64,000 nt of DNA, from assembly GCF_009909145.1 (NCBI RefSeq), contig NZ_JAAAPJ010000005.1, forward strand, positions 336,470 to 400,469. Direction: 5' to 3'. The notes beneath the pieces are model-generated. The model did no database searches and was not told the origin of the DNA. It was given only the letters and a program-made list of their open reading frames with translations. The DNA comes from Corallococcus silvisoli. Its GTDB lineage: Bacteria > Myxococcota > Myxococcia > Myxococcales > Myxococcaceae. Numbering within the stretch: position 1 is the stretch's first letter; each line of letters begins with the position of its first letter. A program made the position numbers and the translations under genes. This document shows positions 1-17,599 of this stretch, piece after piece.

Positions 1-1
1 C

Positions 2-238: not shown

Positions 239-239
239 A

Positions 240-2731: not shown

Positions 2732-2906
2732 AGCACTCGGCGACGGCTCGCGTCGGCGGTGCTCGTAAGCGATCGATTTTCCCTCGGGCTGATTCCTGAT
2801 CGGCGCTCTAGCTTCCTGAAGGGGAGCGAATGCCTGGAGTTTCGCGTGCATCAGGCGATGCCCTGCGTAGGATTCAGGCCCTCACCCGTCCCCCTCCGGA
2901 GGTCCC

Positions 2907-3308
2907 ATGGCATCTCCCACCGATACGCAGGATCCCTTCGAGCGCATCTACCGCGTCTGCGAACAGGTGCCGGCCGGAAAGGTGGCCACGTACGGCGACA
3001 TCGCCGCCATCGTGGGCGGCGGCTGTGATGCGCGCATGGTGGGCCACGCGATGGCGGCCCTGGGTTCGCGCGCGGCGAAGGTGCCGTGGCAGCGCATCAT
3101 CAACCGCACGGGCGGCATCAGCACCTCCGGCCCTCGCCAGCGCGAGCTGCTGGAGGAGGAAGGCGTCGCGTTCGACGACAAGGGCCACGTGCGCATGGAC
3201 GCGCACCACTGGGCGGGACCGAGCGACGCGTGGGCGCGCGCCCACGGCTTCAGCGTGCTGCCGCCCCGGGACGCGCCAGCCCCGGCCTCGCAGCTCAAGC
3301 TCTTCTGA
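2907..3308 (+). CDS. MGMT-family DNA-binding protein, alkyltransferase-like (ATL) type
   Basis: Ogt/MGMT C-terminal domain pattern (VPAGKVATYGDIA...VGHAM...VPWQRIINRTGGIS). Trp replaces the acceptor Cys of the PCHRV motif. GGAGG lies 5 nt upstream of the ATG. Confidence 0.8.
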   Translation: MASPTDTQDPFERIYRVCEQVPAGKVATYGDIAAIVGGGCDARMVGHAMAALGSRAAKVPWQRIINRTGGISTSGPRQRELLEEEGVAFDDKGHVRMDAHHWAGPSDAWARAHGFSVLPPRDAPAPASQLKLF

Positions 3309-3429
3309 AACACACCCCGCGTCGGGGCGTCCGGGCATCAGCCCGAAGCGCTCGGTGGGTCGGCTGCTTTTCAGCGCGGAATAAAGACGGCACCTTCAGG
3401 TCCTCGCCCACTCCTTGGACCTCCGAAGA

Positions 3430-3975
3430 ATGTCCCCTCCCCTGCTCCCACGGGGCCTCGTGCTCCTGGCCTGGCTGCTGGCAACCCCTGGGTTCGCGAA
3501 GGACGCGAAGGTCGGCAAGGCCCAGGGGAAGGGCCCGCGGCTGGTGCGCATCCAGGGCGCCCACCGGCTCCACCGCGACGCGGCGGCGGCCTTCGAGCGC
3601 ATGGCGGCGGAGGCTCGCGCGGCGGGGCGGACCCTGCTCGTGACGAGCGGGTGGCGTTCGTACCAGCAGCAGCGCTTCCTTTGGCGCCGCTACCGCAACG
3701 GCCTGGGGCCCAAGGCCGCGTGGCCGGGCCGCTCCAACCACAACCGCGGGCTGGCGGTGGATCTGGTCGTGGGGAGGGACATGGACTCCCCCACGTATGA
3801 ATGGCTCGCGGCGAACGCGTGCCGCTTCGGCTTCCGGCGAACGGTCGCGTCGGAGCCGTGGCACTGGGAGTACCGGCCGCGAAGCACCGCGACGCCCCAG
3901 GACGGTGAGGACTGCCTGGGGCGTCCGGTGGAGAGTGAGCCCGCGTCAGCCGTGGTCCGTCAGGACGCCAGCTAG
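3430..3975 (+). CDS. Secreted D-alanyl-D-alanine carboxypeptidase family protein (peptidase M15B, VanY-like)
   Basis: Signal peptide MSPPLLPRGLVLLAWLLATPGFA. Motifs SGWRSYQQQ, SNHNRGLAVD and EPWHWEY are typical of VanY-type zinc peptidases. The track ORF starts at TTG 3415; ATG 3430 is preferred. Confidence 0.85.
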   Translation: MSPPLLPRGLVLLAWLLATPGFAKDAKVGKAQGKGPRLVRIQGAHRLHRDAAAAFERMAAEARAAGRTLLVTSGWRSYQQQRFLWRRYRNGLGPKAAWPGRSNHNRGLAVDLVVGRDMDSPTYEWLAANACRFGFRRTVASEPWHWEYRPRSTATPQDGEDCLGRPVESEPASAVVRQDAS

Positions 3976-3994
3976 CGCGTGCGCCTCCGTCACC

Positions 3995-4867
3995 TCACTG
4001 GCACCTGCCGAAGCTGCACGTGAGCGGGAAGCCACACGTATTGCCGCAGCAGGGCCCGTTCCGGTAGCCGCAGGACTCGCAGCGGTTCGACACACCACAC
4101 CCACCCTGCACGCAGTAGGCCCCCGAGCAGCAGGTTTCACCGATGTGGCCGCAGAACAGCTGACAGGTCCCACCGCTGCACGTGAGGACCCCTGAGCAGA
4201 CCTGCCCCGGGCAGCACGTCTCGCCGTTGTAACCACAATGGGCCTGACCGCAGCCGAACAGCTCCAGCTTCCCCATGGAGACGACGACGATGCCCGCCGC
4301 CGGATCATTGTCATCCGTGATGTTCAGCCGGTACTTCAGGTAGCTTCCCGGGGACCCCACCGTATAGGTGCGGGTCTGCAGCCCGGGCCAGCCGGTCTCT
4401 CCCGAGCGCGTGTCCACCACCACCCAACCGCTGCCATTCCACCCCTCCAGCGTCCAGGCGCTGGGCGCGCGACTGGTCAGCGAGCCGTTGGCGAACGTGA
4501 TGGCGTAGCTGGTGACGAGCCGGGGCGTGAAGTCCGTCCACTCGTAGGCGATCCACGCCGGCGTTTGATAGACGGCGGAGATCCACATGCTCGTGTTGGA
4601 GCTGTCGAAGGCCTGCCAGGCCTCATACGAGGAGTCATAGGCGCCTGACCGGGTGACACTGCCGCTGGGGGCCGTCGCGCTGGTCATCGCTGGCACCAGG
4701 CTGACGGTCGTCGAACAGCTCAGCGCGGCCTCGCTCGTGGCCAGTTCGGGTATCGCCGCGGCGCTCTCCTCTAGCGGCGCTCCAGGCGAATCGGTATTTC
4801 CACAGCCAAGGGCGAACAGTGAAAGCAAGGCACTTCCCAGGACGACGATACGGCCAGGATTTCTCAT
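3995..4867 (-). CDS. Lipoprotein with a galactose-binding-like (discoidin/F5-8C-like) domain and three C-terminal 6-Cys modules
   Basis: Lipobox LFALGC. Central beta-rich region (AWTLEGWNGSGWVVVDT...YRLNITDDND). C-terminus holds three modules of CG-x5-CC-x3/4-C-x4/6-C-x4/5-C. GGAGG lies upstream of the ATG. Confidence 0.8.
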   Translation of the reverse strand: MRNPGRIVVLGSALLSLFALGCGNTDSPGAPLEESAAAIPELATSEAALSCSTTVSLVPAMTSATAPSGSVTRSGAYDSSYEAWQAFDSSNTSMWISAVYQTPAWIAYEWTDFTPRLVTSYAITFANGSLTSRAPSAWTLEGWNGSGWVVVDTRSGETGWPGLQTRTYTVGSPGSYLKYRLNITDDNDPAAGIVVVSMGKLELFGCGQAHCGYNGETCCPGQVCSGVLTCSGGTCQLFCGHIGETCCSGAYCVQGGCGVSNRCESCGYRNGPCCGNTCGFPLTCSFGRCQ

Positions 4868-5097
4868 CGAGATGAGCCTCCAGGATTCGGAATGGTGAGC
4901 CTTTGATAACTCACACCCAGAGTCTCAGTTGCTTCACCCTCGATGTCCATCACCGCGCCCCCGCCCTCCCGTTCTTCCGTGGCGGACGCCGCGGCGCGCA
5001 CGTGCGTGCGGTAGCGTTCCGGTGCGGGTGGATCGCCGGCTGGGCAGGGGATGCACTTGGGCACGAAGATGTCACCCAAGACGCGCTCCTTTTTCAT
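4864..5097 (-). CDS. Candidate 77-aa ORF translationally coupled to the lipoprotein gene
   Basis: Its TGA overlaps the lipoprotein ATG (ATGA). GC3 is high over the first two-thirds. No SD sequence and no recognisable motif (MKKERVLGDIFVPKCIPCPAGD...). Confidence 0.3.
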   Translation of the reverse strand: MKKERVLGDIFVPKCIPCPAGDPPAPERYRTHVRAAASATEEREGGGAVMDIEGEATETLGVSYQRLTIPNPGGSSR

Positions 5098-5318
5098 CGC
5101 CAATGCGAGAAGCGTCGGGTGCCCCCATCCGCGATAAAAGCCGGCGAGCCAGACTGTATTCTAGTCGATACTCGGCGGGAGCGCGTCCATGAGCAGCCCG
5201 TGTATGAGGCATGCTGCTGGCGGGTCGGTATTGCCCGTCCAGGTTGGTGTTTGGATTGGAAGTCGAGCGCCTGGATTTGAGGGGGAGCCGTTGCGCGCCA
5301 TCCGAGATCGGGTGCTAC

Positions 5319-6671
5319 ATGAAAACCTGGATTCGCTTCCTGGGGAGTCGCGCCACTCAACTCCGGCAGACGGTGCTGGGAGCCCTCCAAGGCTCGGGCC
5401 TCGAGATGGTGTCGCGCCCGGAGGAAGCTCCCCCTGGCCTCGGAGTGATTGTCTTCGATGAAGTGGAAGCGAACACGCTGGAAGCCGTGCGGGACTGCCG
5501 GCTGAGCCCTTCGACACGGGTCCTCGCGGTGGCCACGACGGGCCAGGGACTCGGTGAAGGGGCTTGCTGGCGGCTGCTTCAGGCGGGAGCCTCGGACGTG
5601 CTCGTCTGGGAGGGCGCGCGTGACGCGGCGGCGGAGATCGCCGCACGGCTGGAGCGCTGGCACCAGGTGGAGCGGCTCATCGAGTCGCCCGCCGTGCAAC
5701 GGCGCCTGGTGGGCCGGGCCGCCACCTGGCTCCCGGTGCTGCGCCAGCTCGTGGAGGTGGCCGCGTTCACTGACGCCTCGGTGCTGCTGCTCGGGGAGAG
5801 CGGCACCGGCAAGGAGGAGATGGCCTGTCTCATCCACGAGCTGGACATGCGCCCGGACAAGCGGGAGCTGGTGACGCTGGACTGTACGACGGTGGTGCCG
5901 GAGCTGTCGGGCAGCGAGTTCTTCGGGCATGAGCGGGGCGCCTTCACGGGAGCGACGAACACCCGAGACGGGGCCTTCGCCCTGGCCCATGGCGGGACGC
6001 TGTTCCTGGACGAGGTGGGCGAGCTGCCCCTGGCCCTCCAGGCTCAGTTGCTGCGGGTGGTGCAGGAGCGTCTGTACAAGCGCGTGGGCTCCAACACCTG
6101 GCAGCGGACGGACTTCCGGCTCGTCTGCGCCACCAACCGCGAGCTGTCCCAGCAGGTCGCCCAGGGCGGCTTCCGCCGCGACTTCTTCCACCGCATCCTG
6201 AGCTGGGTGTGCCGGCTCCCGCCCCTGCGCGAGCGACCCGAGGACATCCTCCCGCTGGCCCAGCACTTCCTCCGGTCGATGCGACCCGACATGGCGCTCG
6301 AGCTGGATCCCCACGTGCGGGAGTACCTCCTCAAGCGCAGCTACCCGGGAAACATCCGGGAGCTGCGTCAGCTCATCGGGCGCCTCTGCAAGCGGCACGT
6401 GGGCACCGGGCCCATCACCGTGGGCGACATTCCCCCCGACGAGCTCCCTTCCTCCGAAGGGCTCGGGGACTGGCAGGACGTCTCGTTCGCGCAGGCCATC
6501 CAGCGCGCCCTGTCGCTCGGGGTGGGGCTCAAGGAGATTGGCCGGAGCGCCTCGGACACGGCCATCCGGCTGGCCCTCGCCGAGGAGCAGGGCAACCTCC
6601 AACGCGCCGCCCGGCGGCTGGGCGTCACGGACCGCGCGCTCCAGCTCCGCCGGGCCCAGCGCGACGAATAG
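5319..6671 (+). CDS. Sigma-54-dependent transcriptional activator (NtrC family) with a degenerate receiver-like N-terminus
   Basis: AAA+ Walker A GESGTGKE, the sigma-54 contact motif GAFTGA, and a C-terminal Fis-type HTH (GNLQRAARRLGVTDRALQ). The N-terminal ~120 aa is receiver-like but lacks the acidic pair and the conserved Lys. Confidence 0.9.
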   Translation: MKTWIRFLGSRATQLRQTVLGALQGSGLEMVSRPEEAPPGLGVIVFDEVEANTLEAVRDCRLSPSTRVLAVATTGQGLGEGACWRLLQAGASDVLVWEGARDAAAEIAARLERWHQVERLIESPAVQRRLVGRAATWLPVLRQLVEVAAFTDASVLLLGESGTGKEEMACLIHELDMRPDKRELVTLDCTTVVPELSGSEFFGHERGAFTGATNTRDGAFALAHGGTLFLDEVGELPLALQAQLLRVVQERLYKRVGSNTWQRTDFRLVCATNRELSQQVAQGGFRRDFFHRILSWVCRLPPLRERPEDILPLAQHFLRSMRPDMALELDPHVREYLLKRSYPGNIRELRQLIGRLCKRHVGTGPITVGDIPPDELPSSEGLGDWQDVSFAQAIQRALSLGVGLKEIGRSASDTAIRLALAEEQGNLQRAARRLGVTDRALQLRRAQRDE

Positions 6672-6685
6672 CCGGAGTCATCGCC

Positions 6686-7522
6686 TCAGCATCCGCCGCC
6701 TCGGAGCGCATCGGGGGTCCAGGGGTCTCGCGGCTCTTCCTCCACCGAGGGGGCCGGGCCCTTCCAGGCAGACCTCCGCCCCAAGGGCCTTGGGCGGCAC
6801 CGGCCCATCAATCGCAGCAGGTTGCCCCCCAACACGAGCTGCCGGTCCTTCGGAGACAGCTCCAGCGCGAGCACCTTGGCCAGCTCCACCCCCGGGTGCA
6901 GCCACGGGCCATCCGAGCCGAAGAGCAGCTTGTGTGCCCCGGCCCGCTCCACCGCCTCCTCCAGCAGGTCGAAGCGGCGCACCCCAGCGGTGTCGGCGTG
7001 GACGTTGGGCAGGCGCGCCAGGAGGTCCAACAGCGCGCGCTGCGCTCGCCAGTCGTCCGCGAAGCTGCCCAGGTGCGGGATGATGAAGCTCACCTCCGGG
7101 TACTCGGTGGCGATCAACTCCACACCGGAGACTTCTCCCATCACGTCGTAGAGGATGGGCAGCGCGAAGGCCCGGGCCACCTCGCAGATCTCACGGGAGA
7201 TGCGCGCGTCGTAGCGGTGGACCTTGATGCCCCGGAAGCCGTAGCGCCGCACGGCCTCCTGGACCCGCTCGAAGACGCGCCCGCGGTCTCTCACGGCATG
7301 CACGAAGGCGAAGCCGTAGAAGCGCTCCGGGTGGCGTTTCACGAGGCGGGCCACCTGGCGATTCGCCGTGGCGTAGTCGGAGTGGAACGCGGCCAGCAGC
7401 ACCGTGCGGGAGATGCCCGCGGCGGACGCGCGCCGCAGGTAGTCCTCCAGCGGCGCGGAGGTGTCCCAGGGGCCGGTGAGCCCGTCGCCCTTCCCGGCAT
7501 GGCAATGGCAGTCGATGATCAT
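6686..7522 (-). CDS. Amidohydrolase-2 family metal-dependent hydrolase (operon gene F)
   Basis: Starts MIIDCHCH (HxH metal motif). Also GIKVH, IIPHLG and LLFGSDGPW, typical of TIM-barrel amidohydrolases. The track ORF 6686-7657 is trimmed to ATG 7522, 7 nt after the stop of gene E. Confidence 0.85.
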   Translation of the reverse strand: MIIDCHCHAGKGDGLTGPWDTSAPLEDYLRRASAAGISRTVLLAAFHSDYATANRQVARLVKRHPERFYGFAFVHAVRDRGRVFERVQEAVRRYGFRGIKVHRYDARISREICEVARAFALPILYDVMGEVSGVELIATEYPEVSFIIPHLGSFADDWRAQRALLDLLARLPNVHADTAGVRRFDLLEEAVERAGAHKLLFGSDGPWLHPGVELAKVLALELSPKDRQLVLGGNLLRLMGRCRPRPLGRRSAWKGPAPSVEEEPRDPWTPDALRGGGC

Positions 7523-7529
7523 CGTCGCG

Positions 7530-8516
7530 TCATCGGCGCTCGAACAGCTCGTAGAGCGCCTTGTCGGGGAGCGAGAGCGCGCGGTTGGCGATGCCAGGCG
7601 CCTTGGCGGCCCGGACGCCCCATGGATTCGGCGGGAGCAAGCCCTGGATGGAGACACCTCCTCTCACGCGGAACTGCCGGATGGAGCTCAGGTTGCGAAG
7701 GCGGCCCGCGGGGACGGCTCCAGAGAGCAGGAGCGCGCGGATCAGCGCATGCTCCACCGCCCTGCGAGCCTGTCGGGTGTTGGGCTGAATCGTCCCGAAC
7801 CAGACCGTGATGGGCTTGGGCAGCAGCCCCCCCTTCTGGGTGAGCCCCATCTGGTAGAGGCTCAGCAGGCGTCCTCGCCAGCGCCCCTGGAAGCTGTCCG
7901 TCTCGCCCACGTAGAGGGGAAGCCCCTCCTCCTCCACGACGTACAAGCCACCTCCGGCGGGAAGCGCGGAGAACGGGTGGCGATCAATCTTCCGCACCGA
8001 CCAGGAGAGGACCTTCGCGGTGACGGGGCCCCGCTGTGCCTCGAGCTCCTGCGACTCCGCGGGAGGGGGCCCGTCCTGCCCGGGCGGAGCGTCCGAGGGT
8101 TCCTCGGGAGGCGCCACATCCGGCGGCGGCTGCGCCGCGGCCACCGGCTCGACGCTGTCGGGAGGGGGCTCGTTCAGGGCCGGCTGGTAGAGCGGGTAGC
8201 CGTACGGCCCTCCGCCGTAGACCACCCAGGGGCGGCCCCTCGGCCACCGCCGCCCCGGCCTCGGCCCCTGCCCCTGCCCCTGCCCCTGCCCGGGGCTCCG
8301 CCACGCACGGGCCGGTCTCGAACCCGAACGCCAGACCTGCGCCCGGGGGACGCCCATCATCCCGCGTCCGACCCCGAACCGCCTCGCGCCGGGCTGGAGT
8401 GCACGAGCGCGGCGCGCAGGTGGCGCACGGAAGGACCGCGCGAAGTGGCCCTCCTCTTCGCCTTCCCACTCGGACTCCAACGCGTCTTCGCTCTCGTTCT
8501 CGTACCACTCATTCAT
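7530..8516 (-). CDS. Hypothetical protein: acidic head, Arg-rich/GQ-repeat segment, Pro-rich linker, GIY-YIG-like C-terminal domain (operon gene E)
   Basis: N-terminus MNEWYENESEDALESEWEGEEEG, followed by about 18 Arg with no acidic residues. The C-terminal half contains GLYVVEEEGLPLYVGETDSFQGRWRGRL...AVEHALI, resembling GIY-x8-YxG-R...E. Start overlaps the gene D stop (ATGAATGA). Confidence 0.75.
   Translation of the reverse strand: MNEWYENESEDALESEWEGEEEGHFARSFRAPPARRARALQPGARRFGVGRGMMGVPRAQVWRSGSRPARAWRSPGQGQGQGQGPRPGRRWPRGRPWVVYGGGPYGYPLYQPALNEPPPDSVEPVAAAQPPPDVAPPEEPSDAPPGQDGPPPAESQELEAQRGPVTAKVLSWSVRKIDRHPFSALPAGGGLYVVEEEGLPLYVGETDSFQGRWRGRLLSLYQMGLTQKGGLLPKPITVWFGTIQPNTRQARRAVEHALIRALLLSGAVPAGRLRNLSSIRQFRVRGGVSIQGLLPPNPWGVRAAKAPGIANRALSLPDKALYELFERR
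8265..8291 (-). repeat. Hexanucleotide tandem repeat (cccctg x4.5) encoding (GQ)4
   Basis: Read directly from the sequence. In frame within gene E. Confidence 0.9.
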
Positions 8517-9594
8517 GACGTGTCCTCCGCTGCTGCCTTCCGTCGACGGCTTCCACCAGCGCCTCCACTGCGTGAGTCAGCTCCTCCGCGCCGTGCCGCG
8601 CGGTGAGGATGAAGCTCACCGACACCTCCGGACCGCAGCGCGAGCGCTGGAGCACGGTCCGGATGCCACGCCGGTGCAGCCGCTCGTGGACCGCTCGCGG
8701 GTTCACCCCGCGAGGAAGCTGGATCCGCTGCACCGGGAACCGCCCGCCCACCGAGGCCAACCCCGACCGCCGCAGCCGCCCCCGGAAGTGCGCCACCCGC
8801 AGCGCCAGCGCCTCCCGGAGCGCGTCGCCTTTCCGGCGATTGATGGCCACCGCGTGCTCGGCGGCATGGAGATCCGCCACCGAAGGTGGACTGCAATGCA
8901 TCCGCGTCTCGCTGCGCTCCTCGTACCTGGCCACCACCCGCGCGCCGCCGGCCATCAGCGCCATCGGCACACCCAAGGCCTTCGCCATCGAGCCGCACCA
9001 CAGGACATCTGGCCCGTGGATGCCGTACCAGCGCAGCGAACCCCCTCCGCCGGCTCCGTATGGCAGGCCGGGCCCCGGCATGCCGAACACTCCCAAGGCT
9101 TGGGTGTCGTCCAGGATGAGCAGGCCCCCATGGGCCCGGACCACCTCCAGGTACGCGTCGAGCGGCGCCAGCGCGCCGCAGCCCGGACACCAACCGTCGC
9201 AGACCACCACCGGCCGGAGCCCCTGGCGCGGCGCCCGTGCCAGGAGCCTCGCCAGGGCCTCGGGCGAATGATGGGGAAAGCTCCTCACGGGTCCGCCGCG
9301 CGCCACCACCCGCTCGAACCCCCACCGCACCACCGGGTAGCTGCCTTCATCCCAGTAGAGGGCCACGGGGCGCCCCGCGAGCGCTCCGAACACGTCCCAG
9401 AACAGGTGCAGCGTGGAGCGGGCGAACAGCCCCCGCTCGCAGCCCACCAGCTCCGCCAGGGCGCGTGACGTCTCTTGCGTTCCGGGGGGCTCCTCGAGGA
9501 TGGCCGGAGTGCCCAGGGTGAGCCGCTCCCACGGCGCGAGCGATCCGCTGGAGTGCTCCAGGCCCAGGTAGAGCGCGGAGGTGAAGTCGAGCAC
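8509..9594 (-). CDS. 8-amino-7-oxononanoate synthase-like PLP-dependent acyltransferase, divergent active site (operon gene D)
   Basis: N-terminal LDFTSALYLGLEHS (compare DFxSNDYLGL). DDTQALGVFG stands where the family has DDAHGxG. Lys is retained in GSMAKALG. GTG start with GGGGGA 9 nt upstream. Confidence 0.8.
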   Translation of the reverse strand: MLDFTSALYLGLEHSSGSLAPWERLTLGTPAILEEPPGTQETSRALAELVGCERGLFARSTLHLFWDVFGALAGRPVALYWDEGSYPVVRWGFERVVARGGPVRSFPHHSPEALARLLARAPRQGLRPVVVCDGWCPGCGALAPLDAYLEVVRAHGGLLILDDTQALGVFGMPGPGLPYGAGGGGSLRWYGIHGPDVLWCGSMAKALGVPMALMAGGARVVARYEERSETRMHCSPPSVADLHAAEHAVAINRRKGDALREALALRVAHFRGRLRRSGLASVGGRFPVQRIQLPRGVNPRAVHERLHRRGIRTVLQRSRCGPEVSVSFILTARHGAEELTHAVEALVEAVDGRQQRRTRHE

Positions 9595-9609
9595 CGGCGC
9601 CGTCCCCCG

Positions 9610-11466
9610 TCACCGCCTCCGCTGCAGGGCCAGCCGGTTGCGCAGGTGCACCGAGGGGGACACGTAGCGCTCCGCCAGGCGCTGCTGGTCGGTGATGTCG
9701 ACCGCGAGGTCCACGCCGGTGACGGCCCGGTACGCGTGGATGTAGCCCTGGATCTCCGGCCGCCAGTAGCGCGCCCAGTTGGCGGCCTGGTTCGGGTCGT
9801 TCGTGATGCTCCACGCGCCGTAGCGCACGGCCAGGAGCACCTGCTCGCCGTAGACGGCGAGGTCGTGGAAGTGCACCACGCTGACGTCCGTCCACCCCAG
9901 GAGCGACTTCATCGCATCCACCCGGTCCATCCACGGCTCCGGGTAGGGCACCATCACCCGCCCGCCGAGGAACTCGCGCATCTCCGGGCGCGACAGCAGC
10001 CACTGCTGCATCAGCATCTCCTGGCGCGCGGTGGAGGGCATGTCTCCGAACTGGTTATGGGCCCCCTGCGCCAGCAGGTAGTGCGTCTCCTTGAGCGAGT
10101 TGAGCACCGGGAAGCCGTCCGACACCACGGTGGTGTCATCGTCCTGCCGGAAGAACTGCACGCATTGGTGGAGCAGGTTGTGGAAGGACTCGAGGAACTT
10201 CGAGCGCCGATCCGCGGTGCGCATCCCGGACACGGCCTTGCCGTGCAGCGTGAAGCCATATTCGTGGTCGTACTCGTGGGCGCGGCGCACGACGCTCAGC
10301 CGGTGCTGCTCGTCCTGGAGGTAGCCCCACAACACGTTGTTGAGGGGCCGCAGCGGATCGATCTCCATGTTCGCCAGCGGATCCCGGTCCCCGGGCCCGC
10401 GCACGTTCTGGAAGCGATTGCTGATGTAGTTCATCGCCTGGACCAGCATTCCCTCCTCGTGCCAGTAGTTCCAGATGAGCTCCAGGAAGGTGGGGTAGCC
10501 CAGCTTCTGCTGGAGGATGCCGTAGCAAGCGGCGTAGTCGTCCTCCGGAATGTTCCGAGGCGCGATGACCGGCACGTCGGGGAGCTTGTTGCGGATGATC
10601 GCCAGGTAGGGGAGCGCGACATCGGCGCTTCCGTTCACATCCTCCAGGTAGTGCTTCCACACGACCTCGAAGTCGAAATCGCGAGGAAGCGTCTGGCCGA
10701 GGCGACCGCCCTCCACGCGCGCGTCCAGCTTGTCCAGCAGCTCCGTGAAGTCCACCAGCACGCCCGTGCGCTCCAGCATGAAGGCCTCGGTCAGGGCCTT
10801 CAGCTTCCGGTAGGCATCCACGCCAGGGAATGGCAGCCGGAGCTTGGGCTTGCGGATCGGGGTCGGCCTGCCCGGGCCCGGCAGGCCCGTGCCCGGGTCC
10901 GTCATGTGGTCGGGCGGGCAGAGGTGTGCGTCGATGAACCGGCTGTATTGATCGAAGGAGAGCCAATCGGTGGTCTTGCGGATGACCATCCAGAGGATGA
11001 CGTCGGTCGTCAGCGGATGAAGGGTGCGCTGCAGCGCCACGGGGAGGACAGGCATGCGTCCAGCCGCGCCGAAGGAGTTGAGCTCGTTGAGCGCTTCGCG
11101 CACCACCTCCCGGACGTTCCTGTCGCCCTCTCCCGGGAGGAGGGTCAGCGACTGTTCGGCTTCCCAGGTGAACGCGGGCCTGGTGGAGCCCGCCCCTTCG
11201 AACTCCTCGAGGATGACCTTGGCCTTGAGGACGCCCGCGCGCCTCGAGCTGGGAATCGTCCAGGTCGCGTGGCCATTGAGCTCCTGCCTGTCCGCGCTGG
11301 ACTTGGAGACCGGGGGTTCGACGCTGCCGGCCTCCACGGACCATCTGTAGACCCGATGCGTGAGCTTCGGGTTCACGTGGACGGGGGACGCCGACAGTTC
11401 GACGGTGGCACCCGAAGCGCTCGAGGTGACGGTGGTGGGTGAGAGAGTGAGTGTGACGCCAGCCAT
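9610..11466 (-). CDS. Large hypothetical protein, 618 aa, no recognisable domain (operon gene C)
   Basis: High GC3. ATG 11466 is preceded by GGAGGA (the track ORF starts at TTG 11481). N-terminal ~110 aa is beta-rich, followed by a long helical region (FLELIWNYWHEEGMLVQAMNYISNRF, HEYDHEYGF). Confidence 0.8.
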   Translation of the reverse strand: MAGVTLTLSPTTVTSSASGATVELSASPVHVNPKLTHRVYRWSVEAGSVEPPVSKSSADRQELNGHATWTIPSSRRAGVLKAKVILEEFEGAGSTRPAFTWEAEQSLTLLPGEGDRNVREVVREALNELNSFGAAGRMPVLPVALQRTLHPLTTDVILWMVIRKTTDWLSFDQYSRFIDAHLCPPDHMTDPGTGLPGPGRPTPIRKPKLRLPFPGVDAYRKLKALTEAFMLERTGVLVDFTELLDKLDARVEGGRLGQTLPRDFDFEVVWKHYLEDVNGSADVALPYLAIIRNKLPDVPVIAPRNIPEDDYAACYGILQQKLGYPTFLELIWNYWHEEGMLVQAMNYISNRFQNVRGPGDRDPLANMEIDPLRPLNNVLWGYLQDEQHRLSVVRRAHEYDHEYGFTLHGKAVSGMRTADRRSKFLESFHNLLHQCVQFFRQDDDTTVVSDGFPVLNSLKETHYLLAQGAHNQFGDMPSTARQEMLMQQWLLSRPEMREFLGGRVMVPYPEPWMDRVDAMKSLLGWTDVSVVHFHDLAVYGEQVLLAVRYGAWSITNDPNQAANWARYWRPEIQGYIHAYRAVTGVDLAVDITDQQRLAERYVSPSVHLRNRLALQRRR

Positions 11467-11483
11467 GATTCCATCCTCCAACG

Positions 11484-12827
11484 CTAGGTGACGACGTTCC
11501 GCGGCAACGCGGGAGCCCGGAGCACCGACGCCAGGGTCCGCGACTTCGAGAGTGACGCGCAGGTCTCGGACGCATCGAGCGTGCTGCGCAGGGCCCAGTA
11601 CTTGAGGAGCTCGGCCAGGGCCTTGCTCTCCTCCTCGGGAGTGATGGCCCCGTCGGCCCTGGCCTGCCCGATGACGGCGAACACCAGCGAGGGCGGCGAC
11701 TCACGAATGCGGGAGCGCCGGGCGCGCCACTCCCGGTACAGCTCGGAGAGCCGGTCTGGCTGACGCTCCCGCGTCTTCATGACCTCCACCAGCGTGCGTC
11801 CACGAAGGGACTCCGGCCGGTGCTCCACCAGGAGCCGCGCGATGCGCGGCAGGCTCGCCTCGAGCGCGCCGAGCACCCGGCGGTGCTGCTCGGACAGTCC
11901 GTCGATGGGGTAGAACGCCTTCCACAGTCGCGCCAGCCGCGCCCACTGCGGATGCGGATACAGCAGTCCGCCCAGCGCGCTGCTCAGCTTGACGCGGATC
12001 CACGGGATGGGATGGGGGTCGTCCATGTTCAGCCGGAACACGAACGGCCGCGGCAGGCTCACCACCCCCATCAGCCCCACCGTGGCGGTCACCCCCACGC
12101 GAGCCACCGACCAGAAATCCGCGACGACCTCCGAGATCCACCGCTCCCACAGGCCCCAGACCAGCGCGTCCTCGGGCCCTTCACGCGGCACGTCGCGCAG
12201 GGCCACGCGGAGCGAGGCCACCAGGTCCAGCAGCGCCGCCCCCTGGTGCCCCACCTCGTGGAAGAGGGAGGACGCGAGGCTGCTGCCGATCATCCGCTCG
12301 CGGGGGACGCGGATGATGGCCACCGGGTTCGCCCCGCCGCCGGGCAGACGCGTGCGCGCCCGGCGGATGGCCGCTCCGGGGCCGCGAGCCAGGTAGCAGA
12401 TGACGGGCGGCGCCTCGTAGTACCCCGGCAGCTCCAGCGCGTTCTTGGAGAGCACGTCCAGCCCCGCCAGCCAGACGCCGTTGTCCGCCTCGCTGCGCTG
12501 GCTCATGGCCTCGCTGAAGATGTCGAACTGCGACAGCACCACGTTGAAGCGCAGCCGCAGGAAGGTGAAGCGCCGCTGCGCCTCGGCGGGGGCCGCGTGT
12601 CGGCCCCAGGGGCCCTCCAACCACGCGAGGTACTGGTGGATCTGCGTCCGTAGCTCACGGCGCCCCTTGACCAGGTAGCTCTCCAACGCCGCCTGCGCTT
12701 CGACGGAGAGCGTGGCCGCTGGGACCATCGTCTCCGACATGGCGAAGGACTTGATGCGCTCGAGCCGGGTGAGCAGCGCGCGGGCCTCCTGTGACAGCAT
12801 CCAGGAGGCGAAGGAGCCGGAGGACAT
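11484..12827 (-). CDS. Hypothetical protein with a single HExxH zinc-metalloprotease motif (operon gene B)
   Basis: SLFHEVGHQGAALLDL is the only recognisable motif. Starts 6 nt after the gene A stop. Confidence 0.75.
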   Translation of the reverse strand: MSSGSFASWMLSQEARALLTRLERIKSFAMSETMVPAATLSVEAQAALESYLVKGRRELRTQIHQYLAWLEGPWGRHAAPAEAQRRFTFLRLRFNVVLSQFDIFSEAMSQRSEADNGVWLAGLDVLSKNALELPGYYEAPPVICYLARGPGAAIRRARTRLPGGGANPVAIIRVPRERMIGSSLASSLFHEVGHQGAALLDLVASLRVALRDVPREGPEDALVWGLWERWISEVVADFWSVARVGVTATVGLMGVVSLPRPFVFRLNMDDPHPIPWIRVKLSSALGGLLYPHPQWARLARLWKAFYPIDGLSEQHRRVLGALEASLPRIARLLVEHRPESLRGRTLVEVMKTRERQPDRLSELYREWRARRSRIRESPPSLVFAVIGQARADGAITPEEESKALAELLKYWALRSTLDASETCASLSKSRTLASVLRAPALPRNVVT

Positions 12828-12833
12828 GGTGGC

Positions 12834-13463
12834 TCAGACCCCGTAGAGGATGATCTTGTTGCCCTTGCGCACCCAGCGGCCACTGCGGCCACCGGTGCCC
12901 GCGGCGTGCGGCATCTGGGCGGCGAAGCCAGGGGCGAACTTCTGGATGGCCTGGTGGACGGCGGCGCCAGCCACCTGCTGGGGCGAAGCATTGTCGGGCG
13001 AGTTGAGGGCCGTCTTGGAGGCGTCCGAGGCGAGTCGGACAATCTGCCGGGCCACCTCGAACTCGCGGTCCTCCTGGCTCAGGCCCTCCAGTTCGAGCCC
13101 GAACGCCTGGCCCGCCATGGAGGCCAGCTTGCCACCGACGGCGCCGCCCACGCCGGGGACCACGAGGTTGCCGAGCGCGCTGCCCACCATCGGCAGGGCC
13201 TGCCTGGCCAGTCCCTTGAGCATGCCCCCGAGCTGCTTGCCCAGCGGAGACTTCACGACCTTGCCGACGGCGCTGCCCACCTTCTTGATGATGTTGCCGA
13301 GGAACTGATCCAGCTCCTGCTCGTTGCTGACCTCCAGCAGCTCCGAGGCGAGCTCGTTCAGCTCGTTCTCGTTGAAGACCTCGCCCCACTCCGACTCGGC
13401 GTTGAACTCGAACTCGAACGACTCCCCCTCCAGTTCCTGGTAGGTGCGATCCACGTCATGCAT
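12834..13463 (-). CDS. 209-aa protein with an acidic head and a cationic Gly/Lys-rich core (operon gene A)
   Basis: ATG 13463 preceded by GAGGAA. The track ORF 12834-13712 is trimmed because its upstream part is Arg/Pro/Ala-rich junk. Residues 1-54 carry 15 Glu, 3 Asp and 1 Arg. Residues 55-122 carry 7 Lys, 1 Arg, 16 Gly and no acidic residues. C-terminus is GRWVRKGNKIILYGV. Confidence 0.8.
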   Translation of the reverse strand: MHDVDRTYQELEGESFEFEFNAESEWGEVFNENELNELASELLEVSNEQELDQFLGNIIKKVGSAVGKVVKSPLGKQLGGMLKGLARQALPMVGSALGNLVVPGVGGAVGGKLASMAGQAFGLELEGLSQEDREFEVARQIVRLASDASKTALNSPDNASPQQVAGAAVHQAIQKFAPGFAAQMPHAAGTGGRSGRWVRKGNKIILYGV

Positions 13464-13520
13464 GGTCAGTTCCTCGTGTGATGGGGCCGGCTTCGTGGCC
13501 GCGGGTTCGGACCGGGCATA

Positions 13521-13536
13521 AGCAGCGGCTGTGCCA
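13521..13536 (-). promoter_or_regulatory. Sigma-54 (-24/-12) promoter candidate for the six-gene operon
   Basis: Minus strand reads TGGCACAGCCGCTGCT against the consensus TGGCACG-N4-TTGCW. GG and GC have correct spacing. The -12 element is about 58 nt upstream of ATG 13463. No other correctly placed TGGCAC/GC pair was found in the window. Confidence 0.6.
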
Positions 13537-13581
13537 ACCCCGCCGAGGGTCGCTCCTGCTCTGGGAGTCAGGGCGCGGGAG

Positions 13582-13639
13582 CGAAGCGCGCTTCGGCGGC
13601 GCCGGCCGAACGGGAGATTCGGCGAAGCAGGCTTCGGCG
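13582..13639. promoter_or_regulatory. Candidate upstream activator sites: perfect palindrome plus TTCGGCG repeats
   Basis: CGAAGCGCGCTTCG (13582-13595) is a perfect 14-bp palindrome. TTCGGCG occurs at 13592, 13618 and 13633, with an inverted GCCGAA at 13605. The sites lie about 45-105 bp upstream of the -24 element. Confidence 0.3.
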
Positions 13640-13766
13640 CCCCGTCATGGCCCCGTGGGCTCCGGGCGAGTCCCCCCCCTGGCGAGGGCATTCGTCCCCT
13701 CGCCGTCGCCATTCGCGGGGCCGTCGGCTAGCGTTCGGCCCTCTCCGCGGAACAAGAGGGGGGCCC

Positions 13767-16040
13767 ATGCGCGTCGTACCGTCCATCCTGGAATCCGTCA
13801 CCGTTCACGCCGAAGGCGCGCTGTGCACCCGCGCGCTCGTGCTCTCCCCCGAGGACGGGCACCTGCCCGAACAGGTCCGCGTCGACGGCCTGCCCCTGGC
13901 CCTGCGAACAGCGACCCTGCGCGCCCGCGTGGTGGAGGGCCCCACCGGGCTCCTCGTCCGCGACCTGCGGCCCACGTTCGACGTGCGGCTGCCCGCCGAA
14001 TCGGACCTGCCCGCGGAGCTGCACGCGGCCGAAGCGGCGGAGGCCGCGCTGTCGGACGTGCTGGGCCGGCTGGAGCGGGTGCGCGCGGAGCTGGAGACCC
14101 TTCAGGGACTGGCGCCCTCCTTCCCGCCCCAGCGCAAGGGCCAGCTCCCGCGCGAGGCGCCCCTCGCCGCGATGCTGGCGCTGACGGGCTTCGTGGACGC
14201 GGAGCTGACGGCGCTGCATGCCCAGCGGCTGGAGCTGGAGCGGCAGTACCGCGACGCCACCCAAGAGCTGGAGCTGCGCCGCCGCCGCGTCCAGGAGCTG
14301 TCCTCCGCGCGAAGCGTGGACCGGGCCCGGCTCTTCCGCGCGGCCCTCCTCACGCTGTCCGGCCCCATCGCCGCGAACGCGGAGGCGCGCCTGGTGTTGG
14401 AGTACGCCGTGGCGGGCGCGCGATGGGTGCCCACCTACGACCTGCGCCTGCCGCGCACGCTGGAGGAAGGCACGCTGCGCATGCGTGCCGCCGTCATCCA
14501 GCGGACCGGCGAGGACTGGAAGGGGGTCCGGCTGTCGGTCTCCACCGCGAGCCTGGAGCGGCGCGCGGTGGTGCCGGAGCTGAAGTCGCTGCGCATCGGC
14601 CGCAGCCAGCCGGCGCCCGTGCGCTCGGGATGGCGTGAGCCCGCGCCGGGCCTGGACGAGCTGTTCGCGGGCTACGACGCCATGACGGTGCCGCCCCCTC
14701 TCGCGATGCCCGAGCCTCTTCCGCCCCCTCCGATGGACGAGCTGGACGCGGATGAGGACTCGTTCGGGAGCGTGGTGGCCTTCGAGGAGTCCTTGAAGGA
14801 GAAGTCGCCGAAGGCGATGTCGTCCTCGTATGGGGGCGCGCCGGGCGCTCCGCCCATGGCGCCCCCTTCCGTCTCCCGGCCCGCGCCGCCGCCCATGCCG
14901 GCTCCCAAGGCCGCGGCCCCCGCGCTGGGCGGAGTCCGCCCGTCGGCGGCCCCGAGCCGGAACCTCAGCGACGGCGGAGACCTCAGCCGGAGTTTCCGGC
15001 GGGATGCCCCGGGCCGGGGCGGCGGCGGGATGAGCAAGAAGCGCGCGGCCGAGGAGGAGAGCCTCGATGATGCCCCGATGATGGACCTGTCATCGGACCT
15101 CTCGGACGGCGAGGGCGGCGGCGGGGAGTCGCGGCGCACGAGGGCCCTGGAGCCCGCGGACAGCCTGTTCGACTACGACTCGCTGACGCTGGCCCCTCCG
15201 GGCGCTCCAGCCGAGCGCGGCCGGCTGACGCCCCGGCCGGCGCTCATCACGCAGGCGAGGCTGTCCGTCACTTCCGTGAGTCTCCAGGTCGAAGTGGTGC
15301 GCCTGGAGGCCCAGGCCTTCGTCACCGCCGAGTCCGTGAACACCGTGCCGCCGCCCACGTGGGCGGTGGCGCCGCGCGACTCCGCCCGGCACTTCGACGC
15401 GCGCTTCGACGCGGAGGCGGTCGCGGACGTGCCCGCCGACGGCGCGTGGCACACGGTGCCCATGCTGACGGTGCCCCTGGAGTTCCGCGCCGAATACGTC
15501 TGCGTGCCTTCGGTGGAGCCGCGGGTCTTCCGCACGGTGCGCCTGGACAATCGGACACCGCACCCGCTGCTCGCGGGGCCCGTGGACGTGACGCTCGGGG
15601 ATGAGTTCCTGATGACCTCTCCGCTGCCCACGCTCGGGCCCGGCGAGACGCAGCGGCTGGGATTGGGCGTGGAGGAAGCGATCCAGGTGGCGCGCAACAC
15701 GCGCTTCGAGGAAGCGACGGGCGGCATGTTCGGCAACAACACCGTCCTCACGCACCACGTCTCCGTGGAGGTGACCAACCACCTCGCGCGTCCCGCGACG
15801 CTCGCCATCTCCGAGCGCATCGGCGCGGTGCCCGAGTCCCAGAAGGACCTCAAGGTCGAGGAGGCGGAGGTCATCCCGCCCTGGCAGAAGCCCACGCCCC
15901 TGCCCGGAGAGGTCGCGGTGGAGGGCGAGCGGGTCTGGCGCATGAGCATGCCCGCCGGAGAGAAGCGTTCGATGAAGGCGACATGGGTCGTGAAGCTGCC
16001 CGGCAACAAGATGCTGTACGGCGGGAACCGGAGGACATGA
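13767..16040 (+). CDS. DUF4139 (mucoidy inhibitor MuiA-like) family protein with a ~150-aa Pro/Ala/Gly-rich insertion
   Basis: Hallmark ARWVPTYDLRLP...AAVIQRTGEDWKGVRLSVSTAS. ATG 13767 preceded by AAGAGGGGGG. Low-complexity insertion at about 14640-15190. Confidence 0.8.
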   Translation: MRVVPSILESVTVHAEGALCTRALVLSPEDGHLPEQVRVDGLPLALRTATLRARVVEGPTGLLVRDLRPTFDVRLPAESDLPAELHAAEAAEAALSDVLGRLERVRAELETLQGLAPSFPPQRKGQLPREAPLAAMLALTGFVDAELTALHAQRLELERQYRDATQELELRRRRVQELSSARSVDRARLFRAALLTLSGPIAANAEARLVLEYAVAGARWVPTYDLRLPRTLEEGTLRMRAAVIQRTGEDWKGVRLSVSTASLERRAVVPELKSLRIGRSQPAPVRSGWREPAPGLDELFAGYDAMTVPPPLAMPEPLPPPPMDELDADEDSFGSVVAFEESLKEKSPKAMSSSYGGAPGAPPMAPPSVSRPAPPPMPAPKAAAPALGGVRPSAAPSRNLSDGGDLSRSFRRDAPGRGGGGMSKKRAAEEESLDDAPMMDLSSDLSDGEGGGGESRRTRALEPADSLFDYDSLTLAPPGAPAERGRLTPRPALITQARLSVTSVSLQVEVVRLEAQAFVTAESVNTVPPPTWAVAPRDSARHFDARFDAEAVADVPADGAWHTVPMLTVPLEFRAEYVCVPSVEPRVFRTVRLDNRTPHPLLAGPVDVTLGDEFLMTSPLPTLGPGETQRLGLGVEEAIQVARNTRFEEATGGMFGNNTVLTHHVSVEVTNHLARPATLAISERIGAVPESQKDLKVEEAEVIPPWQKPTPLPGEVAVEGERVWRMSMPAGEKRSMKATWVVKLPGNKMLYGGNRRT

Positions 16041-17599
16041 TGCGCACTTCCATTCTGTTGCCCCTGGTCAAGGTGACGGTCCTGGAGGACCGGGCCCTCA
16101 TCGAGCGCACCGGCGAGGTGACGCTGCCTCCGGGCCCGTGCCGCCTCGCGGTGGACGGCCTGCCGGCGGTGGCCGTGGACCGCTCGCTTCAAGCGAAGCT
16201 CTCAGGTGGCGTGGTGACCCAGGCCAGCCTGCGCCGCTCGATGCGCGCGGTGCTCCCGGAGGCCCTGCGCGAACACGCCACGGAGCTGGCCCGCCGCGCC
16301 TTCGAGCGCGAGCAGGAGCTGGAGCGCGCGCAGGCGGAGGTCGGTCGCCTGGAGACGCGGCGCGACCTGCTGGAGGCCGCGCGGACCGAGGTCTTCCGCG
16401 CCATCAGCGAGCGCACCGGCGCGGGCGAGGCGGATCCGACGCGCTGGAAGGAACAGCTCGAAACGCTGCGCAAGGAGCAGGCCGCGACGGACGACACGCT
16501 CTGGCAGGCCCGGCGCTCCGCGGCGCGCCTCCAACGCCAGCATGAGCAGGAGACCCGCGAGGTGCTGGCGCGCACGGCTCCCGCCGAGCCCACGGTGGAC
16601 GTGCGCGCGGAGCTGGACGTGAGCCACGCGACGGGCGGGCCGGTGACGTTGACGCTGACGTACCTGGTGCCCTGCGCCGCATGGCGGCCCGCGTATCGCG
16701 CGGCCCTGAGCCTCGCGGACGAGGGCTCGACGGTGGCGTTGGAGTGCGAGGCCGTCGTCTGGCAGAACACGGGCGAGGCCTGGAAGGACGTGACGCTGGC
16801 CTTCTCCACGGCGCGCCCCACGCTGGGTGCCACGCCCCCCAGGCTCGAGGAGGACTGGCTGTCCCTGCGGGACAAGACAGCGCGAGAGAAGCAGGTGGTG
16901 GAGGTCTCCGTCCGCGAGGAGTCCATCCAGACGACCGGCGAGGCCGGGACCTCGAAGGCCGCGGATGCGCTGCCCGGCATGGACGACGGCGGAGCGCCGG
17001 TGACGCTGTCCACGCCCCACAAGGTCACGGTGCCGTCGGACGGCGAGGCGCACCGCGTGGCGCTGTTCGCGTTCACGGCGCCCGCGACGTCGGAGCTGGT
17101 GGCCTGCCCGGAGCAGTCGCCGCTGGTGCACCGGGTGGCGCGGTTCGCCAACACGGGGCCGACGGTGCTGATGGCCGGGCCGGTGGACCTGGTGCGCTCG
17201 AAGGGCTACGTGGGCCGCGCGCAGCTCAAGTTCGCGGGCCGGGGCGAGCGCGTGAAGCTGGGCTTCGGCAGCGAGGACTCGCTGCGCGTGTCACGGCAGG
17301 CGGAGTCGAGCGAGGAGGTCGCGCGCATCACCAGCCGGCGCACGAACACGGAGCGGGTGAAGCTGTTCGTCTCCAACATGGGGGCGATGCCGGCGAACCT
17401 GGTGGTGGAGGAGCGCATGCCGGTGTCCGAGGTGGAGGCCGTGGAGGTGGCGCTGCTCAAGGACGCCACGAAGCCCGCGCCCACGAAGGTGAGCGACGAC
17501 GGCATCGTGCGCTTCGAGTTGAACGTCCCGCCGCGCTCCCGGCAGACGGTGTCCTTCGGCTTCACGGTGGCCCGCTCCGGGAAGGTCTCGGGCCTGTAG
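16037..17599 (+). CDS. DUF4139 (MuiA-like) family protein, paralog of the upstream gene
   Basis: AAWRPAYRAALSL...AVVWQNTGEAWKDVTLAFSTARP. Its ATG overlaps the upstream TGA (ATGA). Confidence 0.8.
   Translation: MMRTSILLPLVKVTVLEDRALIERTGEVTLPPGPCRLAVDGLPAVAVDRSLQAKLSGGVVTQASLRRSMRAVLPEALREHATELARRAFEREQELERAQAEVGRLETRRDLLEAARTEVFRAISERTGAGEADPTRWKEQLETLRKEQAATDDTLWQARRSAARLQRQHEQETREVLARTAPAEPTVDVRAELDVSHATGGPVTLTLTYLVPCAAWRPAYRAALSLADEGSTVALECEAVVWQNTGEAWKDVTLAFSTARPTLGATPPRLEEDWLSLRDKTAREKQVVEVSVREESIQTTGEAGTSKAADALPGMDDGGAPVTLSTPHKVTVPSDGEAHRVALFAFTAPATSELVACPEQSPLVHRVARFANTGPTVLMAGPVDLVRSKGYVGRAQLKFAGRGERVKLGFGSEDSLRVSRQAESSEEVARITSRRTNTERVKLFVSNMGAMPANLVVEERMPVSEVEAVEVALLKDATKPAPTKVSDDGIVRFELNVPPRSRQTVSFGFTVARSGKVSGL

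Follow-up and report, generated by a model that had tools for sequence, protein, structure and literature searches.

An apparently mobile, predicted sigma-54-gated gene cassette of unannotated protein families in Corallococcus silvisoli and bacteria of other phyla

Among the closest described counterparts of the locus treated here are the modules PspF–pspABCDE and RtcR–rtcBA, in which a bacterial enhancer-binding protein (bEBP) with a GAFTGA motif is encoded adjacent to one operon, and tandem upstream sites and a single −24/−12 promoter keep basal expression tightly off, a tightness to which the control of our locus is likened. The same arrangement was found in Corallococcus silvisoli (Myxococcota), in a stretch of 64,000 nucleotides (NCBI RefSeq assembly GCF_009909145.1, contig NZ_JAAAPJ010000005.1, positions 336,470–400,469; hereafter the window), where an operon of six minus-strand genes, A to F, converges with a bEBP gene, R. 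The payload is unrelated to that of the two known modules, including neither PspA nor RtcB or RtcA, and the N-terminal domain of R is neither CARF nor a recognisable receiver. We know of no Psp or Rtc locus that brings its own rpoN, unlike the relatives of this operon in Actinomycetota and Chloroflexota. On sequence grounds, the operon is one copy of an apparently horizontally mobile, predicted self-contained cassette gated by sigma-54. That this is a mobile regulon with its own sigma factor, activator, sites and promoter, which installs sigma-54 transcription in Actinomycetota, and that its payload forms a new programmed lysis or toxin-release system built from the unrecognised proteins A, B and C and a slot for tagged effectors, is a compound proposal to which we give not quite an even chance.

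Open reading frame (ORF) calling across the window reproduced the six minus-strand ORFs, with gaps from A to F of 6, 17, 15, −8 and 7 nt, and placed the stop codon of F 14 nt from the end of R (5319–6671, plus strand). The tight packing, the convergent bEBP gene and the −24/−12 site reported in the initial annotation were all found where it had placed them. A hydropathy scan detected no transmembrane segment in any of the six proteins, and their N-termini, by inspection, are not signal-peptide-like.

Related loci were collected from one genome per species, the genes being located by targeted tblastn with the window proteins, which gave 79 loci; gene presence was counted in the 55 of these with complete flanks and palindromes in 71. 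Homolog numbers given below are clusters at 90% identity and are to be read as lower bounds. The 79 loci belong to Myxococcota, Acidobacteriota, Chloroflexota, Actinomycetota (Streptomyces, Kribbella and others), Bacteroidota, Pseudomonadota and Methylomirabilota, and protein matches add Nitrospirota and Planctomycetota, so that the families occur in at least nine phyla. The carriers include monoderm and diderm bacteria as well as non-predatory autotrophs and phototrophs, and the cassette is found also on the megaplasmids or chromids of Paraburkholderia phymatum, Ensifer adhaerens and Rhizobium.

The gene order in tblastn was fixed as A-B-C-(D)-[variable slot]-F with a downstream, usually convergent bEBP gene, and 41 of the 55 complete-flank loci showed this order in full next to a convergent R. 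A and B were present in all 55, R in 50, F in 48, D in 38 and E in two. Minimal cassettes of Kribbella and Algoriphagus have the composition (rpoN)-A(-A2)-B-C(-D)-F plus R. Co-occurrence of the six genes in other genomes, which the initial annotation had left to be checked, held inside and outside Myxococcota for A, B, C and F, and for R, while D proved frequent but dispensable and E rare. Judged from these comparisons, the conserved unit is A, in one or two copies, with B, C, F and the bEBP, and not the six genes. The median identities to homologs in complete-flank loci were 63% for F, 56% for B, 53% for R and 50% for C; such high identity across phyla, together with the patchy distribution, points to horizontal spread under strong constraint.

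The predicted sigma-54 promoter, TGGCACAGCCGCTGCT (13521–13536, minus strand), reads TGGCAC-N5-CTGCT; its −12 GC lies 59 nt 5' of the ATG of A, and transcription is predicted to start near 13510. It is the sole site in the 64 kb with at most one mismatch from TGGCAC-N5-TTGCW, when 1.88 would be expected by chance. Since the match does not exceed chance, the promoter call needed independent support; what gives the site weight is where it lies and that it recurs in related loci. The pattern TGGCA[CT]-N5-[CT]TGC[ACT] precedes the first A gene at many loci and in all phyla sampled, and GG-N10-GC elements occur at the equivalent position, including Streptomyces (TGGCACGGAACTTGCA) and Kribbella (TGGCACGAATTGTGCG). 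In 24 loci examined where the strict pattern failed, among them those of Kribbella and Acidobacteriota, GG-N10-GC was present downstream of the proximal palindrome in 23. A scan of positions 5000–14000 for sigma-70 promoters and terminators gave none, the scan being uninformative at 70% GC.

The palindrome CGAA-N6-TTCG has just two sites in the window, both directly upstream of the promoter: a distal putative activator site, CGAAGCAGGCTTCG (13623–13636, without strand), centred approximately 119 nt upstream of the predicted start, and a proximal one, CGAAGCGCGCTTCG (13582–13595, without strand), centred approximately 78 nt upstream of it. A pair of these palindromes 41–43 bp apart recurs upstream of gene A in related loci. 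At least two were present within 450 nt 5' of A in 51 of the 71 loci and at least one in 58, and their density was 3.29 per kb 5' of A and 0.041 per kb over the remaining sequence of these loci, an 80-fold enrichment. In most loci the −24 element starts approximately 45–57 nt downstream of the start of the proximal palindrome, and in several gammaproteobacterial loci approximately 100–125 nt from it.

The R protein has the AAA+ domain of sigma-54 activators (Pfam Sigma54_activat, 1.9e-53), with GAFTGA within FFGHERGAFTGA, and a Fis-type helix-turn-helix. Its N-terminal domain is uncharacterised and shows at most marginal CheY-like similarity; the best NCBIfam match of R is RtcR, far below the cut-off. 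The cassette bEBPs of related loci keep GAFTGA. The palindromes are the sites that R would be expected to bind. With the conserved promoter, the palindrome pair, the GAFTGA bEBPs and the rpoN genes borne by some cassettes, the operon is very likely controlled by sigma-54 and R, and the sigma-54 promoter and NtrC-type activator proposed for it earlier have gained support from conservation. In a group of Bacteroidota loci (L035, L025, L038, L039, L051 and L053) the bEBPs have GAFTNA, GAFTHA or GSYTNA in place of GAFTGA.

Actinomycetota and Chloroflexota have been reported to be without sigma-54 or to have it rarely (PMC3162934, PMC12316311). An ORF with the RpoN box ARRTVAKYR was found directly upstream of A in 18 loci, all of which belong to these two phyla: three of Streptomyces (L028, L032 and L040), eight of Kribbella and its relatives (L056–L058, L060, L062, L064, L066 and L070), five further loci (L023, L050, L073, L077 and L079) and two of Chloroflexota (L015 and L033). 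The three examples scanned with Pfam, from Kribbella, Streptomyces and Chloroflexaceae, all have Sigma54_CBD and Sigma54_DBD, and those of Streptomyces and Chloroflexaceae also Sigma54_AID. The position directly upstream of A implies that the cassette enters such hosts together with a sigma factor of its own. Published surveys have concluded that Actinomycetota have no functional RpoN and have dismissed sporadic 'rpoN' matches (PMC12316311); these matches may be parts of the cassette. The presence of a cassette-borne rpoN in Actinomycetota offers strong indirect support, from gene content, for predicted RpoN-dependent transcription.

The actinomycetotal copies vary. Four Streptomyces copies (L026, L029, L030 and L059) have neither rpoN nor the bEBP gene nor the palindromes, and in one of them (L030) a large ORF downstream, at 13974–16946, resembles by eye an ATP-binding LuxR-type (LAL) regulator, which suggests that the regulator has been swapped. 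In the Kribbella-type locus L058 an extra ORF of 209 aa without a Pfam match lies between F and the bEBP gene (13277–13906, plus strand), and other Kribbella-type cassettes have gaps of 600–700 nt in the equivalent region.

Gene A (12834–13463, minus strand) encodes 209 aa; its product, like that of gene C, is 100% identical to a protein of C. silvisoli. The protein begins with MHDVDRT and an acidic-aromatic head; the motif ELLEVSNEQELDQFLG and a cationic core that resembles a glycine zipper come next, and SGRWVRKGNKIILYGV forms the C-terminal tail. The net charge is −17 over residues 1–55 and +8 over residues 56–120, which bears out the acidic head and cationic core of the initial annotation. 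Its homologs number at least 1760 and are unnamed except for a few labelled 'DUF697 family'. In their alignment the N-terminus is near-invariant (MHD[IVL]DRT); the head consists of acidic-aromatic repeats (FEFE, GEYE), varies in length and is followed by ELAxELLxVxxExELxxFLG. Behind the glycine-rich cationic core there is a conserved helical segment, GLELEGLSxEDxEFExAKQFVRLA, and the tail, sGRW[VI]R[RK]Gxx[IV]x[LV]xG, is conserved across phyla. Many loci have two tandem A paralogs. No match to A was found in Pfam, NCBIfam, PADLOC or the PDB sequence profiles; there were weak matches to Gly-zipper_Omp (best E-value 0.2) and L_biotic_typeA, and in PHROGs weak glycine-rich matches to tape-measure families only. 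A was also considered as a classical holin, which was rejected for want of a transmembrane segment, and its tail as an amyloid signalling motif, which was set aside as there is no NLR partner.

Gene B (11484–12827, minus strand; 447 aa) has at least 5723 homologs, unnamed except for one 'HEXXH motif-containing protein' in UniRef; identity within the aligned homolog set is 61–87%. The alignment shows an invariant HEVGHQ motif (HEVGH at residues 190–194, with H190, E191 and H194 invariant) and an invariant Arg-rich loop (RRARTRLPGG...RVPRER). The AlphaFold2 model is helical, with a predicted local distance difference test score (pLDDT) of 82 and a predicted template modelling score of 0.80, and places HExxH in a helix at 181–199, after a two-stranded sheet of strands 142–147 and 170–175. 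B matched nothing in Pfam, NCBIfam, PADLOC or the PDB sequence profiles and had no significant match in PHROGs, its model had no structural match in the PDB or BFVD, and an exact-protein look-up gave no record of the sequence. The HEVGH motif of the initial annotation is thus real, while its protease label, with no peptidase fold match, stays conjectural. B as an alpha-ketoglutarate/HExxH peptide hydroxylase was rejected, as there was no NCBIfam match.

Gene C (9610–11466, minus strand; 618 aa) has at least 3809 homologs, unnamed except for two. It consists of a variable N-terminal beta-sandwich (approximately residues 1–110) and a highly conserved helical domain of approximately 470 aa, in which nearly all of the 80 invariant columns of a 48-sequence alignment lie. 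The AlphaFold2 model is confident for the beta-sandwich, with the helical body behind it, in agreement with the beta-rich N-terminus and helical body first described; the helical domain has a pLDDT of 40–60 and was not used for fold search. C had no match in Pfam, NCBIfam or PADLOC, no significant one in PHROGs and no PDB sequence-profile relative, and the PDB profile searches of A, B and C together returned nothing or designed helical repeats only. The two named C homologs (P0012, 748 aa, of Aggregicoccus, and P0054, 640 aa, of Pendulispora) are labelled '8-amino-7-oxononanoate synthase' in the source database, a label that may come from a C–D fusion or from an artefact of gene calling; were the fusion real, it would link the function of C to that of D.

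Gene D (8509–9594, minus strand; 361 aa), an accessory member of the cassette, encodes a divergent alpha-oxoamine-synthase-like enzyme of fold type I, dependent on pyridoxal phosphate (PLP) and similar to BioF, Kbl and SPT. Compared with BioF, Kbl, SPT and CqsA it exceeds the Pfam gathering threshold (Aminotran_1_2, 1e-9, 38.5 bits against a cut-off of 19.7) and keeps key catalytic residues, the Schiff-base Lys and the PLP Asp, with SMAKALG aligning to the BioF motif GTLxKA. It differs from BioF in scoring far below the equivalog (TIGR00858, 59.9 bits against a cut-off of 426), in an N-terminus approximately 40–50 residues shorter than in alpha-oxoamine synthases, and in two altered PLP-contacting His, replaced by Gln and Tyr (DDAH to DDTQ, NHAS to SYPV), so that its earlier description as 8-amino-7-oxononanoate-synthase-like with an altered active site stands. 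Gene F (6686–7522, minus strand; 278 aa) encodes the most conserved protein of the cassette, with the same median identity of 63% to homologs in other phyla. It is an Amidohydro_2 TIM-barrel metal hydrolase, as first annotated, passing the gathering threshold of this superfamily (2.7e-23, 83.6 bits against a cut-off of 26.4) with visible metal-ligand motifs (DCHCH, KVH, IPH and GSDGPW; HxH...H...D); no PDB relative was found at E < 0.001.

These enzymes raise the possibility of a natural-product cluster of the kind that makes ribosomally synthesized and post-translationally modified peptides (RiPPs), in which A would be a precursor with a long acidic leader, tailored by B, C, D and F into a bacteriocin-like product. 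D and F come from small-molecule enzyme families and have kept the catalytic Lys and the metal ligands, B and C are extremely conserved and enzyme-like, and one B homolog has been named for its HEXXH motif; the ELxxFLG of A resembles the ELxxIxGG of double-glycine leaders, its paralog pairs recall two-peptide bacteriocins, and its faint L_biotic_typeA and Gly-zipper matches point the same way. The pattern of conservation is, however, the reverse of that of a RiPP precursor: A proteins are 200–350 aa long, with the 'core' conserved throughout and the acidic head variable. Pfam, NCBIfam and PADLOC scans found no RiPP recognition element, transporter, C39 peptidase or known tailoring family, D is absent from approximately 30% of the complete loci, and such a cluster would leave a polymorphic slot of peptidoglycan hydrolases with A-type heads and tails unexplained. 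We regard it as unlikely.

The slot lies between D (or C) and F, holds zero to four unrelated genes in other loci and differs between close relatives, a polymorphism typical of conflict systems. PG_binding_1 was found by Pfam in 15 of 38 slot proteins, and the other slot domains were OmpA, PG_binding_3, Peptidase_M74, Amidase_2, CHAP, trypsin, M20, DUF2272 and glycoside-hydrolase-like; in a Nitrospiraceae locus a phospholipase D (PLDc_2) is fused to PG_binding_1. Many related loci encode endolysin-type enzymes, in which PG_binding_1 is combined with Amidase_2, CHAP or M74, where the window has the GIY-YIG-like E instead. A strongly acidic aromatic head (e.g. MSDEFGFEE, MPYELNFEAEPF or MNEWYE) was present in 16 of the 38, a basic Arg/Pro/Trp-rich segment after the head likewise in 16, and the GRW motif of the tail of A (GRWVRxGxxIxLxG) in seven, either C-terminally or just behind the head. 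None of the slot proteins has, by inspection, a signal-peptide-like N-terminus. Two slot genes, of Archangium (L003, 11495–11929) and Corallococcus exercitus (L004, 11896–12195), encode an acidic head and an Arg/Pro/Trp-rich peptide with no enzymatic domain; these peptides, e.g. RHRWPWLRYLRSWPY, resemble Arg/Trp-rich antimicrobial peptides.

Gene E (7530–8516, minus strand; 328 aa) occupies the slot in the window. Its product has an acidic head (MNEWYE..., net charge −11), an Arg/Pro/Trp-rich cationic segment (net charge +18), an acidic linker rich in Pro and, at the C-terminus, a divergent domain resembling GIY-YIG. Nothing significant was found for E in Pfam, NCBIfam, PADLOC or PHROGs, the sub-threshold GIY-YIG match (PF01541) having 12.3 bits against a cut-off of 22.6 and an E-value of 0.22; weak GIY-YIG matches were obtained for nine of 19 family members (best 1.2e-4), and a string conserved in the family consensus, GLYVV...LYVGET...RWRGRL...VEHALIR...LRN, recalls the GIY-YIG order of GIY-x9-11-YIG followed by Arg, Glu and Asn. 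Compared with GIY-YIG nucleases, E may keep the order GIY...YIG...R...E...N; its score stays below the threshold, and in its relatives the partners of the domain bind peptidoglycan or are peptidases, which would be odd for a nuclease. The GIY-YIG-like label is accordingly plausible though sub-threshold, while 'nuclease' stays conjectural. The E-domain family comprises 85 clusters, with fusions elsewhere to Peptidase_M74, PG_binding_1 or trypsin; among the 79 loci relatives of E were found in L005 and L037 only. By its distribution, E is lineage-specific, a cargo of the polymorphic slot and not a core gene.

Wall-directed domains under a dedicated activator would also suit an envelope-stress or cell-wall-remodelling regulon like Psp, Zra or Rtc, in which envelope damage would switch R on and the operon would serve the repair or remodelling of membrane and peptidoglycan, not killing. 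The dedicated bEBP with tandem upstream sites and a sigma-54 operon is the design of PspF–pspA and RtcR–rtcBA, RtcR is the nearest NCBIfam model to R, though far below its cut-off, and the slot proteins carry peptidoglycan-binding or peptidoglycan-cutting domains; occurrence in autotrophs and phototrophs that do not prey on other cells would also be in keeping with it. Sigma-54 regulons are enriched for cell-exterior functions (PMC3162934), which was counted on the same side. The wall enzymes are, however, without export signals, and the slot is polymorphic, with phospholipase D, trypsin-like and nuclease-like domains typical of toxins. Moreover, A is unlike PspA/ESCRT-III or other repair proteins, and a patchy horizontal distribution with very high cross-phylum identity would be unusual for a housekeeping stress system. 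We consider such a regulon distinctly unlikely.

The surroundings of the loci were diverse. In the Nitrospiraceae locus L082 (metagenome-assembled genome GCA_050249475.1) a complete contractile-injection-system cluster at 1–7768, with Pvc16_N, sheath, two gp19 tubes, DUF5908, CIS_tube and a VgrG-like spike as well as a REC-GerE regulator, is divergent from the cassette, which begins at 8326. N-terminal packaging signals are known on the cargo of contractile injection systems. The cassette could supply or load the cargo of a delivery machine whose genes lie elsewhere, for example an extracellular contractile injection system; the heads and the GRW tail would then be packaging signals, and B, C and F would prepare or load the cargo. 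The effector repertoire of peptidoglycan hydrolases, phospholipase D, protease and nuclease-like domain, too, resembles secretion-system toxins. By tblastn, however, none of the injection-cluster proteins of L082 was found within 10 kb of other loci or in the 64-kb window, three further locus contexts had no contractile-injection genes, and the cassette is found in monoderms and diderms alike. Linkage to a contractile injection system, seen at one locus only, was set aside, and a loading module is in our view improbable.

At other loci, the cassette on P. phymatum pBPHY01 is directly preceded by the gene (L080, 4747–6831, minus strand) of an OLD/AbiEii-type ATPase (AAA_15/AAA_21) whose N-terminus is IF2_N-like, which hints at a defence context not seen elsewhere, and a TIR-nSTAND-WD40 gene lies 8 kb from the cassette in L084. 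In the window, tandem DUF4140/DUF4139 genes (13647–16040 and 15983–17599, plus strand) are divergent from the operon and share with it the intergenic region that holds the palindromes; their adjacency to the cassette is not conserved elsewhere. A 290-aa protein encoded at 3995–4867 (minus strand) has a lipoprotein-like N-terminus (LFALGCGN) and C-terminal Cys-rich CCxG repeats, and no Pfam match.

The reading that we favour, tentatively and at appreciably less than an even chance, is that the cassette works as a pro-toxin or lysis module under tight gating. Some signal would cause R to fire an otherwise silent promoter, and the payload would be a set of proteins tagged with heads and tails. 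A would be a pro-protein whose acidic head masks a cationic, glycine-zipper-like and membrane-active core, and the variable slot would add effectors, E in the window and endolysin-like peptidoglycan hydrolases, phospholipase D or proteases elsewhere. B, as a zincin-like HExxH protein with a poly-Arg loop, would recognise the acidic heads and strip them, while C and F, with or without D, would be conserved enzymes of maturation or handling. Activated A would then permeabilise the cytoplasmic membrane of the producer in a holin-like manner, and through the breached membrane the peptidoglycan-binding effectors would reach the cell wall, resulting in regulated lysis or suicide. The benefit would be either altruistic release of antibacterial enzymes or an abortive-infection-like response.

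Several features argue for such a gated module. That a whole sigma factor is imported, apparently to serve a single promoter, suggests a need for zero-leak control and, with it, a toxic payload. As the payload proteins have no signal peptides, A is proposed to breach the cytoplasmic membrane, and the HExxH motif of B with its invariant poly-Arg loop would be in keeping with a maturation protease specific for the heads. The acidic heads probably serve to mask the cationic segments next to them, and the cassette probably controls toxic proteins that attack the cell wall.

Other observations weigh against it. All steps downstream of transcription are ones that we infer, and A is no classical holin, its hydropathy maximum of 1.36 (19-residue Kyte-Doolittle) being below the transmembrane threshold. 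B resembles no peptidase family or fold, and no third zinc ligand was assigned. The most conserved parts, B, C and F, look like enzymes, and the model leaves their constraint unexplained, as it does the membership of F and D in small-molecule enzyme families. The minimal cassettes of Kribbella and Algoriphagus are without any slot hydrolase. No immunity genes were recognised, a PADLOC scan of all six window proteins that admitted E-values up to 0.1 gave no match, and there was no consistent defence-island or mobile-element context around related loci. A scan of 2.9 million viral contigs with a B profile found no relatives, which argues that the cassette is not phage-borne.

A, B and C are large unannotated families in a fixed cassette, and their functions can be studied jointly. 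The rpoN genes of Streptomyces, Kribbella and other Actinomycetota become tied to one cassette, which qualifies the conclusion that there is 'no functional sigma-54' in the phylum, and the apparently single-promoter regulon is a minimal one in which sigma-54 can be studied in a naive host. The compact switch of palindromes, promoter, bEBP and rpoN, being apparently portable across phyla, is attractive as an orthogonal expression device with very low leak. A gated lysis or toxin module, if that is what the payload forms, would add a new mechanism to those known for bacterial death or antagonism and would be a source of naturally 'masked' fusions of cationic peptides and hydrolases.

Literature searches, including searches with motif strings, found no description of the cassette, and the earlier remark that no characterised pathway was known to combine proteins of these kinds was upheld, as no database family, structure relative or paper was found for A, B or C. 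Partial likenesses to known systems exist. As in phage holin–endolysin cassettes and type 10 secretion, the slot proteins of related loci are modular peptidoglycan hydrolases with PG_binding_1 and without signal peptides, preceded by the small, charged, Gly-rich A, often as two paralogs; unlike in those systems, A lacks a transmembrane domain, spanins are absent, B, C and F have no phage counterpart, and control is by sigma-54. As in polymorphic toxins, conserved heads and sometimes tails are joined to swappable enzymatic domains; here there is no recognisable trafficking domain or adjacent immunity gene, and the slot lies inside a conserved enzyme operon. The cationic, Gly-rich, amphipathic core of A behind an anionic pro-region resembles glycine-zipper membrane toxins and bacteriocins (CdzC/CdzD, Tse4/Ssp6, colicin V-type microcins) and antimicrobial peptide precursors with anionic propieces, a likeness of composition and not of homology. 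Paralog pairs are common also among the glycine-zipper toxins, and ELxxFLG stands at the head–core junction of A; compared with these toxins A is much larger and carries a further helical domain as well as the conserved tail, there is no ABC/C39 exporter, and the Gly-zipper_Omp matches are marginal. The payload therefore falls outside known systems, since comparison with lysis cassettes, defence systems, RiPPs and zincins fails in each case on one or more of the features that define the system. As a switch, the regulatory half is of a textbook kind, but that it can be carried into Actinomycetota along with an rpoN of its own conflicts with current statements in the literature.

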